From Escherichia coli 042 (GTDB taxonomy: Bacteria; Pseudomonadota; Gammaproteobacteria; Enterobacterales; Enterobacteriaceae), in the NCBI RefSeq assembly GCF_000027125.1, contig NC_017626.1: a stretch of DNA of 64,000 nucleotides, one strand, 5' to 3'. The stretch's first letter is position 1. Every line of letters begins with the position of its first letter. The notes beneath the pieces were generated by a model. The model ran no database searches, had not been told where the DNA came from, and was given only the letters and a program-made list of their open reading frames with translations. Below, in pieces: positions 31,204 through 32,781 of this stretch. Both the position numbers and the translations under genes were made by a program.

Positions 31204-32450
31204 TGAGGTGGCACACTAAATTTAGCTACCTGAACAGAGGTGATATGCTCACCTCAGAACAACACAGGTGCCATAATGAAAAAAGAAATTTCAGCGCAGA
31301 GTTTAAACGCGAATCCGCTCAACTGGTCGTTGACCAGAAATACACCGTGGCAGATGCAGCCAGCGCTATGGATGTCGGCCTTTCCACAATGACGCGATGG
31401 GTGAAACAATTACGTGATGAGCGGCAGGGAAAAACACCAAAAGCCTCCCCCATTACCCCGGAACAAATTGAAATCCGTGAGCTCAGGAAAAAGCTACAAC
31501 GTATTGAAATGGAAAATGAAATATTAAAAAGGCTACCGCGCTCTTGATGTCAGACTCCCTGAACAGTTTTCGATAATCGGGAAACTCAGGGCGCGTTATC
31601 CTGTGGCCACTCTCTGCCATGTGTTCGGGGTCCATCGCAGCAGCTACAAATACTGGAAAAACCGTCCTGAAAAACCAGACTGCAGACGGGCTGTATTACG
31701 CAGCCAGGTACTTGAACTGCATGGCATCAGCCACGGCTCTGCCGGAGCAAGAAGCATCGCCACAATGGCAACCCAGAGAGGCTACCAGATGGGGCGCTGG
31801 CTTGCTGGCAGACTCATGAAAGAGCTGGGGCTGGTCAGTTGCCAGCAGCCGACTCACCGGTATAAGCGTGGCGGTCATGAGCACGTTGCTATCCCGAATC
31901 ATCTTGAGCGACAGTTCGCCGTAACGGAACCAAATCAGGTGTGGTGCGGTGATGTGACCTATATCTGGACGGGTAAGCGCTGGGCGTACCTCGCCGTTGT
32001 TCTCGACCTGTTCGCAAGAAAACCAGTGGGCTGGGCCATGTCGTTCTCGCCGGACAGCAGGCTTACCATGAAAGCACTGGAAATGGCATGGGAAACCCGT
32101 GGTAAGCCCGTCGGGGTGATGTTCCAAGCGATCAAGGCAATCATTATACGAGCAGGCAGTTCCGGCAGTTACTGTGGCGATACCGGATCAGGCAGAGTAT
32201 GAGTCGGCGTGGAAACTGCTGGGATAACAGCCCAATGGAGCGCTTCTTCAGGAGTCTGAAGAACGAATGGGTGCCAGCGACGGGCTATGTAAGCTTCAGC
32301 GATGCAGCTCACGCAATAACGGACTATATCGTTGGATATTACAGCGCACTAAGACCGCACGAATATAATGGTGGGTTACCACCAAACGAATCAGAAAACC
32401 GATACTGGAAAAACTCTAACGCGGAGGCCAGTTTTAGTTGACCACAACAG
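31204..32450 (+). mobile_element. IS911-like (IS3 family) element, degenerate
   Basis: IRL tgaggtggcacactaaatttagctacctgaacagaggtgatatg; orfA region [25 protein letters not shown]; poly-A tract at orfA start one A short; orfB split over two frames (31603-32202, 32199-32441); no matching IRR. Confidence 0.75.
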
Positions 32451-32781
32451 ACTACCTGAAGGGAGCCGCGGTCGCCTAGCAGTTGCAGTAGCAGGAGATC
32501 ATCCAGCCGCAGTACAGGTCACGATGACCCTGGTTAATGATACCGGCTTTGACCCCGTATTTTCCGGCTCTATCGCTGAATCATGGCGTCAGCAGCCGTG
32601 CACACCATCCTATTGTTGTGACTGGGAGGCTGCCACCATGCTTCGCGCTTTCCCTCTGGCGAAAAAGGGAGAAGGACGGGCCCGTCTGCCTTCACTTTAT
32701 GCCAGCTTCGGTAAGCTGGGTGAGACACCGACTCATGAATATATCATTGATAACAATCGATCCATCAACTGGCCTGTATAA
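32451..32781 (+). pseudogene. NADP-dependent oxidoreductase (F420-type dinucleotide-binding family), C-terminal fragment
   Basis: …AGDHPAAVQVTMTLVNDTGFDPVFSGSIAESWRQQP…; N-terminus replaced by the IS911-like element. Confidence 0.4.

Follow-up and report, generated by a model that had tools for sequence, protein, structure and literature searches.

The insertion sequence between the shf and fec loci

The window analyzed here is a stretch of 64,000 nucleotides of the chromosome of Escherichia coli 042, and the subject of this work is a defective insertion sequence (IS) and the fragment of an oxidoreductase gene, yjhV, that directly follows it, together at positions 31204-32781 on the plus strand. 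The segment 31100-32900 is 100% identical to the chromosomes of the porcine enterotoxigenic E. coli (ETEC) strains CV839-06, ETEC1731, and ETEC1747, and the CV839-06 chromosome matches window positions 16-46488 with 99.96% identity. The open reading frames (ORFs) and the RefSeq annotation of the identical locus give the gene order lpxM(msbB2)-virK-capU-shf on the minus strand, then the frameshifted IS and an 85-residue ORF on the plus strand, followed by fecEDCBA-fecR-fecI on the minus strand, ykiE, and IS1F. RefSeq labels the IS "IS3 family transposase, frameshifted" and the neighboring 85-residue ORF "hypothetical/NAD(P)-binding domain". The left flank in this lineage is shf (30217-31059, minus strand), recognized from its ORF, RefSeq annotation and Pfam as a polysaccharide deacetylase gene and the first gene of the shf-capU-virK-lpxM(msbB2) module, and on the right, according to the ORFs and the RefSeq annotation, is fecE (33339-34106, minus strand), the last gene of fecIRABCDE, so placed that the IS remnant marks the edge of the fec island. 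The other edge of the fec block is IS1F (41121-41888, plus strand), as annotated in RefSeq and in K-12.

The K-12 MG1655 chromosome aligns with window positions 31655-41888 in a single 10.2-kb megablast alignment of 99.5% identity, and collinearity stops exactly at the outer end of IS1F. In K-12 the order, within the KpLE2 region, is IS911B/insO (b4623)-yjhV (b4286)-fecEDCBARI-IS1F, and the junction between IS and yjhV is the same as in the window. Gene order and both boundaries, IS/yjhV on one side and fecI/IS1F on the other, thus make this a K-12-type fec island. A reading made earlier from the sequence alone (the sequence-only reading) had likened the arrangement, an IS911 remnant beside fecE and an IS1 beside fecI, to the fec region of K-12, and the alignment, which includes IS1F, bears out that comparison. 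The left flanks differ, being yjhD/yjhE in K-12 and shf-capU-virK-lpxM in the window. In enteroaggregative E. coli (EAEC) 042, the chromosomal shf locus (Ec042-4769-72) is known to adjoin the fec locus (Ec042-4776-82), and the published order of shf-rfbU(capU)-virK-msbB2, a short gap, and fec is that of the window, although the paper makes no mention of the IS remnant that separates these loci (PMC2808357). In the collection of papers searched, nothing specific turned up on an IS911 copy at the edge of fec. The whole shf-capU-virK-lpxM(msbB2) module looks intact in the window. The CV839-06 annotation of virK as a pseudogene was considered and rejected for the window, in which virK is an intact 316-codon ORF (28171-29121, minus strand), the premature stop at codon 89 being private to CV839-06.

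The element itself occupies 31204-32449 on the plus strand, as delimited by alignment to reference copies and by the RefSeq annotation, and is a defective ISEc52-like member of the IS911 group of the IS3 family. It was aligned with five annotated intact ISEc52 copies and two IS911 copies; these annotated copies were retrieved by BLAST with an IS911 probe, and no conclusion rests on the probe sequence. Over its full length, the window copy is 98.5-99.0% identical to the five ISEc52 copies and 92.5% identical to the two IS911 copies, from which it differs by 94 substitutions. It is 1246 bp long, compared with 1249 bp from TGAAGTGG... to ...CA in the intact copies, the difference consisting of exactly three one-base deletions. 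The ends of the intact copies are fixed by target-site duplications, GGC for one IS911 copy and GAC, GTA, and ACAG for three ISEc52 copies, but the window copy has no such duplication, the left flank being CCT and the right flank GAC.

The left inverted repeat (31204-31239, plus strand, 36 bp, TGAgGTGGCACACTaAATTTaGCtACC...) and the right inverted repeat (32414-32449, plus strand, 36 bp), both placed by alignment and repeat pairing, have fared very differently. Four private substitutions mark the left repeat, at IS positions 4, 15, 21, and 24, and at positions 9-11 it reads CAC as in IS911, compared with TTT in ISEc52. The right repeat is complete and ends ...CACAACA; it (...GTTGACCACAACA) matches the intact ISEc52 right end at 35 of 36 positions, with the terminal ...GACCACAACA included, and its sole substitution is an A at 32425 where active copies have T. 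The sequence-only reading had found no recognizable right inverted repeat, which is not correct, and it is the left repeat that is degenerate. The right repeat was probably missed by eye because the two ends pair at only 21 of 36 positions (24 of 36 in active ISEc52 and IS911, against a chance mean of 9.0 with a standard deviation of 2.6) and because the element ends in AACA rather than TTCA. That last difference is the one between the two named elements, with ISEc52 ending ...CACAACA and IS911 ...CACTTCA. The terminal dinucleotides TG...CA are kept at both ends, and the element retains an imperfect inverted repeat of about 36 bp. Three other left-repeat-like matches of 21/36 in the window, at 21449, 29010, and 52727, look like chance.

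In IS911, the terminal repeats are likewise 36 bp (PMC2909936). The window copy resembles IS911 (the Shigella dysenteriae prototype; for example NZ_MW509820.1) in family, in left-repeat positions 9-11, and in architecture, which in IS911 comprises 36-bp imperfect repeats, TG...CA ends, a 100-residue OrfA, an A6G heptamer, and a DDE orfB. With ISEc52, for example the plasmid copies in NZ_CP144507.1 and NZ_CP019905.1, it shares the right terminus and the layout of orfA and orfB, and it departs from ISEc52 in being three bases shorter, in having all three reading frames broken, in the CAC and the four private substitutions of the left repeat, and in the missing target-site duplication. Judged by these identities and ends, the closest named element is ISEc52 rather than IS911 proper. 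The description as a degenerate IS911 is therefore right as to the IS911-type group and the IS3 family but not as to the element itself (approximately 99% identity to ISEc52 versus 92.5% to IS911), and in annotation ISEc52-like would be the better name. Elsewhere in the window, a 110-bp stretch at 9412-9521 (plus strand) matches the final 111 bp of the IS, its right end, with 76.6% identity; it is probably an orphan end that belonged to another relative in the IS3 family.

Coding capacity of the element

The positions of the three one-base deletions were established by alignment to the references. The first is at the start of orfA, where the ATG (31276-31278) is followed by A6 (31279-31284) and not by the A7 that is found in 5/5 intact ISEc52 copies, 2/2 IS911 copies, and K-12 IS911B. 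The orfA ATG is consequently out of frame with the body of orfA, and its frame stops after 38 codons. The second has contracted the heptamer A AAA AAG, the signal for programmed -1 frameshifting in elements of this group, to AAAAAG (A5G) at 31526-31531 (plus strand). The third is the loss of a C between 32126 and 32127, by which TTCCACAGCG has become TTCCAAGCG within the F-H-S-D-Q-G of the integrase core; the missing base sits just before the second catalytic Asp, and the site is not a homopolymer. The sequence-only reading had proposed an alignment to reference IS911, and this alignment confirms the two lesions it had noticed, namely the poly-A tract that is one A short and the split of orfB across two frames, and finds no intact reading frame, while adding the heptamer contraction that it had missed and bringing the count from two to three.

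The consequences for the frames can be followed in turn. The orfA-body frame (31245-31547, plus strand), which carries HTH_Tnp_1 (PF01527, E = 9e-14), is open only from an in-frame upstream ATG at 31245, or a TTG at 31203, and because of the heptamer lesion it terminates early as ...KRLPRS*. Because of the deletion between 32126 and 32127, orfB is divided into ORFs at 31603-32202 and 32199-32441 in different frames; by Pfam, the first segment (31532-32126, plus strand) contains HTH_21 (PF13276) and the start of rve (PF00665, E = 2e-16), and the second (32127-32441, plus strand) contains the rest of the integrase core and rve_3 (PF13683)/rve_2. The transposase domains are thus present and the layout is recognizable, but it is broken: orfA and orfB are no longer joined by a -1 frameshift on A AAA AAG, and orfB lies at +1, not -1, relative to the orfA-body frame, so that normal slippage cannot make OrfAB. 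In IS911, the 100-residue OrfA is a regulator and OrfAB is produced by -1 frameshifting (PMC2909936). When the three missing bases are re-inserted in silico, the window copy yields a 100-residue OrfA and a 389-residue OrfAB, both free of stops, with five amino acid differences from ISEc52 among the 389 residues of OrfAB, and the three deletions are therefore the only frame-breaking lesions. The element is accordingly predicted to produce neither OrfA from its own ATG nor OrfAB through a -1 shift, and no full catalytic domain.

Two of the three lesions fall in poly-A runs, where some sequencing platforms tend to make errors, and it might be asked whether the lesions are sequencing or assembly errors and the element is really intact. 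This can be dismissed almost completely, because five complete genomes that were sequenced independently, one of them the Sanger-era assembly of IAI39, show the same three deletions, while the orfB deletion is outside any homopolymer and is present in all ten fec-linked copies that were compared, that of K-12 MG1655 among them. Scans for regulatory features gave little of use. A permissive Rfam scan of 30900-33500 returned only a chance microRNA match (E = 0.74) and no frameshift-element family, and a promoter scan of 31000-33400 found four sites where 2.7 were expected, none of them usable; the terminator scan of the same interval gave seven sites compared with 2.3 expected.

The yjhV fragment and the fixed junction

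The DNA that follows the IS, at 32450-32781 (plus strand, with the stop codon at 32779-32781), is the 3' 44% of a 248-codon gene for an F420_oxidored/Fno-STEAP-type NADP oxidoreductase, as indicated by BLASTP, DNA alignment, and the K-12 annotation of yjhV as a pseudogene. The search for full-length homologues that the sequence-only reading had called for found a 248-residue "NAD(P)-binding domain-containing protein" of Pantoea agglomerans and a gene of Raoultella terrigena. The fragment aligns to residues 141-248 of the Pantoea protein with 79% amino acid identity (BLASTP, E = 4e-67) and is collinear with the full-length family members. That reading had described the C-terminal third of a dinucleotide-binding oxidoreductase directly after the IS; family and position were right, but the fraction is 44% (108/248 residues) and not a third. 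At the nucleotide level, window positions 32450-32965 are 85.6% identical to the Raoultella locus. The match to the uninterrupted gene there starts at precisely 32450, which is the base after the IS, and extends 184 bp beyond the stop codon, so that 32782-32965 (plus strand) is a non-coding stretch that accompanied the oxidoreductase gene. A tblastn search of the 64-kb window for the first 140 codons found no trace of them.

The missing part includes the nucleotide-binding region. In the full-length homologues from Pantoea (248 residues) and Raoultella, PF03807 (F420_oxidored) covers residues 2-93 (MKIGVIGTGNIGG...), whereas the window fragment, which starts at residue 141, has no N-terminal Rossmann fold with its GxGxxG NADP-binding motif, and in this it differs from the Fno/STEAP-type oxidoreductases (PF03807), in which the Rossmann domain is present. 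The fragment on its own matched no family in Pfam or NCBIfam, and its assignment is possible only via the full-length homologues. These match by sequence the structures 4huj, 2vns, 5n2i, and 2raf in the Protein Data Bank, among which are the STEAP3 oxidoreductase domain and F420:NADP oxidoreductase, and of which 2raf is a "putative dinucleotide-binding oxidoreductase". Against NCBIfam npdG, the full-length homologue scores 33.9 bits, far below the 149.8-bit cut-off, and therefore does not count as an F420 reductase equivalog. In Raoultella and Pantoea, the full-length gene is found beside a divergent helix-turn-helix (HTH) regulator and not beside fec, the regulator being of the HxlR family (PF01638) in Raoultella and annotated just as a helix-turn-helix protein in Pantoea; this suggests that the pairing of oxidoreductase and HTH regulator was the original context of yjhV. 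An uninterrupted oxidoreductase gene beside fecE, which would represent the empty site, was sought in Raoultella and Pantoea, and no ancestral junction of fec and oxidoreductase was found there. In the Raoultella assembly, the oxidoreductase gene is itself split into products of 181 and 47 residues. One of the sites from the terminator scan is a terminator-like hairpin at 32975-32991 (plus strand; CGCTCTG-GCA-CAGAGCG with a T-rich tail), 10 bp past the end of the Raoultella-locus homology, and it may be the original terminator of the oxidoreductase gene or part of the junction with fec DNA.

The fragment is thus predicted from its sequence to be a pseudogene that lacks the Rossmann domain. In pan-genome studies, yjhV has been listed among fec-linked, mastitis-associated, or "virulence" genes (PMC11390585, PMC7750360), but a fragment that hitch-hikes with fec without its NADP-binding domain should not be read as a gene with its own function. 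A domesticated role for these remnants was weighed, in which a protein of about 100 residues, similar to OrfA and made from the ATG at 31245, damps transposition of the IS911 group, or in which the yjhV ORF of 85-137 residues encodes a functional small protein. The frame 31245-31547 is open, retains the HTH and most of the leucine zipper, and has GAGGTG four bases upstream of its ATG, the equivalent piece in K-12 is labeled "IS911 regulator fragment", and gene callers predict an 85-residue or 137-residue yjhV product in hundreds of assemblies. We nevertheless hold such domestication to be highly improbable, for RLPRS* stands in place of the C-terminal end of the zipper, no promoter signal rises above shuffled expectation, and the yjhV fragment, which has no family match of its own, lacks the whole of residues 2-93. 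In addition, most fec-linked copies lack this left part of the element or have a different one, so that it has not been conserved along with the island.

Of 5426 complete E. coli genomes, 2627 (~48%) have the junction between the IS and yjhV, always at the same nucleotide, while only 472 have the junction between shf and the IS. This fixed position bears on transposition activity indirectly; it is the broken layout of orfA and orfB that makes the element a remnant and no functional member of its group. An element that cannot move itself might still be mobilized, with an intact ISEc52 or IS911 elsewhere in the cell acting on its termini in trans. Both termini keep TG...CA, the right repeat is 1/36 off the active copies, and enterobacterial plasmids commonly harbor intact ISEc52 and IS911 copies, all of which would favor mobilization. 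It is a very unlikely alternative all the same, given a left repeat with four substitutions relative to both reference elements, ends that pair less well than those of active copies, the lack of a target-site duplication, and a yjhV junction that does not vary among so many genomes. Furthermore, among the sampled matches, no copy with this left repeat was outside the shf junction, and there is no intact ISEc52 or IS911 within the 64-kb window. Preferential action in cis, which has been reported for the IS911 transposase, also counts against mobilization in trans.

A mosaic left end and the history of the fec edge

With mobilization set aside, we return to the fixed, inactive element. Ten fec-linked copies were compared, from the window, IAI39, NCTC86, CFIAFB20180511, E275a, E2865, 8479, K-12, ATCC 8739, and 3385. 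The orfB one-base deletion and the right-repeat A at 32425 are present in 10/10, across five kinds of left part, and the five shf-flanked copies, IAI39 and NCTC86 among them, all have the A6, the A5G, and the private left repeat. The copies of E2865 and 8479 combine an ISEc52 left repeat with an orfA region of IS911 type, keep the A6G heptamer intact, and include a 3-bp insertion; those of ATCC 8739 and 3385 are truncated by IS30 or IS600; and, more generally, the K-12, E2865, and 3385 copies are differing IS911/ISEc52 mosaics or are cut by IS30/IS600. K-12 IS911B agrees with the window copy in the orfB deletion, in the substituted base of the right repeat, and in having an A5G heptamer, but unlike it is split by IS30D and an IS600 fragment and has an IS911-type left part with an intact A7. 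To judge from the orfB frameshift that the copies share and from the fixed position of the IS/yjhV junction, fec blocks everywhere derive from one ancestral arrangement.

The left end of the window copy points elsewhere. The shf-proximal flank and the first ~100 bp of the element are found on many virulence plasmids of ETEC and EAEC, for example pETEC_74 of E24377A, and the IS stub beside shf on pETEC_74 and on many such plasmids has the same four private substitutions in its left repeat. Beyond the repeat, the plasmid stub continues as an IS911-type sequence, with TCC before the ATG and then A7, until it is truncated. Of 13 substitutions that separate the window copy from ISEc52, seven fall in the first 24 bp, which fits a different origin for the left end. 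A three-way alignment of the window, pETEC_74, and ISEc52/IS911 gives a pattern of variant sites from which a crossover zone would be placed at 31228-31263 (plus strand), with an shf-linked IS911-like stub upstream and a fec-linked ISEc52-like body downstream. From this pattern we infer that the element is a recombinant between an shf-associated IS911-like copy and a fec-associated ISEc52-like remnant, an origin that would also explain the lost target-site duplication and the lost 5' half of the oxidoreductase gene. The sequence-only reading had spoken of a truncated target gene; a truncated gene does lie beside the IS, but the present structure is apparently not a simple insertion into that gene and is more likely the product of recombination between IS copies, because there is no target-site duplication, the 5' 140 codons are absent, and the left end co-segregates with the shf flank.

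Considered together, these features make us confident that the element is a dead, immobile ISEc52-type copy that marks one edge of the fec island, with IS1F at the other, and that its left flank has been swapped by recombination. The order of events and the recombination mechanism given here are reconstructions from the observed anatomy, lesions, identities, and distribution. An active element would once have been present at about codon 139 of the 248-codon NADP-oxidoreductase gene, and later the gene would have lost its 5' half and the element its target-site duplication. The one-base deletion in orfB would then have killed the transposase before the fec island spread, since every fec-linked copy examined (10/10) carries it. 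From that time, the remnant may have served as a patch of repeated DNA where homologous recombination and further IS insertions exchange the left flank, and the variety of left parts and flanks across the copies is consistent with such a role. In this lineage, recombination with a plasmid-type IS911-like stub would have joined shf-capU-virK-msbB2 to fec and supplied the degenerate left repeat, and the two poly-A contractions (A7 to A6 and A6G to A5G) would be additional changes common to the lineage.

Several considerations weigh against this account. The crossover interval is short (~36 bp) with few diagnostic sites, and the left end could also have arisen by gene conversion or through the accumulation of point mutations. 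Neither the order of events nor the direction of the exchange, from plasmid to chromosome or the reverse, can be read from the sequences. The A5G heptamer also occurs in K-12 on an IS911-type background, so that this lesion may be recurrent and not a clean lineage marker, and the open frame is compatible with a truncated OrfA-like product from the ATG at 31245. A more far-reaching proposal is that the remnant is a recurrently used recombination "adapter" that docks the fec island beside different cargo, or that the OrfA-like frame 31245-31547 represses incoming IS911-group elements in trans; we consider this unlikely.

The scar is an ordinary one, and the finding matters little in itself. Its components are already known, all having been annotated in K-12 (where the names are IS911B/insO and yjhV pseudogene) and by PGAP, both of which call the same features pseudogenes, and the shf/fec neighborhood has been published. 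What is added are small refinements: the element is assigned to ISEc52, its right repeat is seen to be intact, a third lesion and a mosaic left end are recognized, and the orfB frameshift emerges as ancestral and common to about half of E. coli. The mosaic left part does, however, document how dead IS copies act as portable homology for the shuffling of island modules, in this case the joining of a plasmid-type shf-capU-virK-msbB2 to fec.

A second IS type recurs near this edge. Just to the left of the shf module is an IS600-type element (26728-27045, together with an IS3-family transposase gene between lpxM and a BCCT transporter gene), the 318-bp IS600 fragment in K-12 IS911B matches the window element at 99.4%, and in strains 3385 and 8479 the IS remnant linked to fec has IS600 as its left neighbor. 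IS600 thus seems to have been repeatedly involved in rearrangements at this island edge. Elsewhere in the window are IS2-like copies at 14990-16310 and 62131-63462 as well as IS66-type elements, and collinearity with CV839-06 is lost beyond ~46.5 kb (~46490-64000), after which there are only scattered IS-type matches; the region is an IS-rich mosaic island. At the opposite end of the window (~1-4670, minus strand), the annotation table of the CV839-06 record (1341856-1346903) gives, next to each other, a DUF4007 family protein, a hypothetical protein of 1110 residues, and a 3'-phosphoadenosine 5'-phosphosulfate (PAPS) reductase family protein, a trio that we take to resemble the SspB/SspC/SspD DNA-phosphorothioation module.

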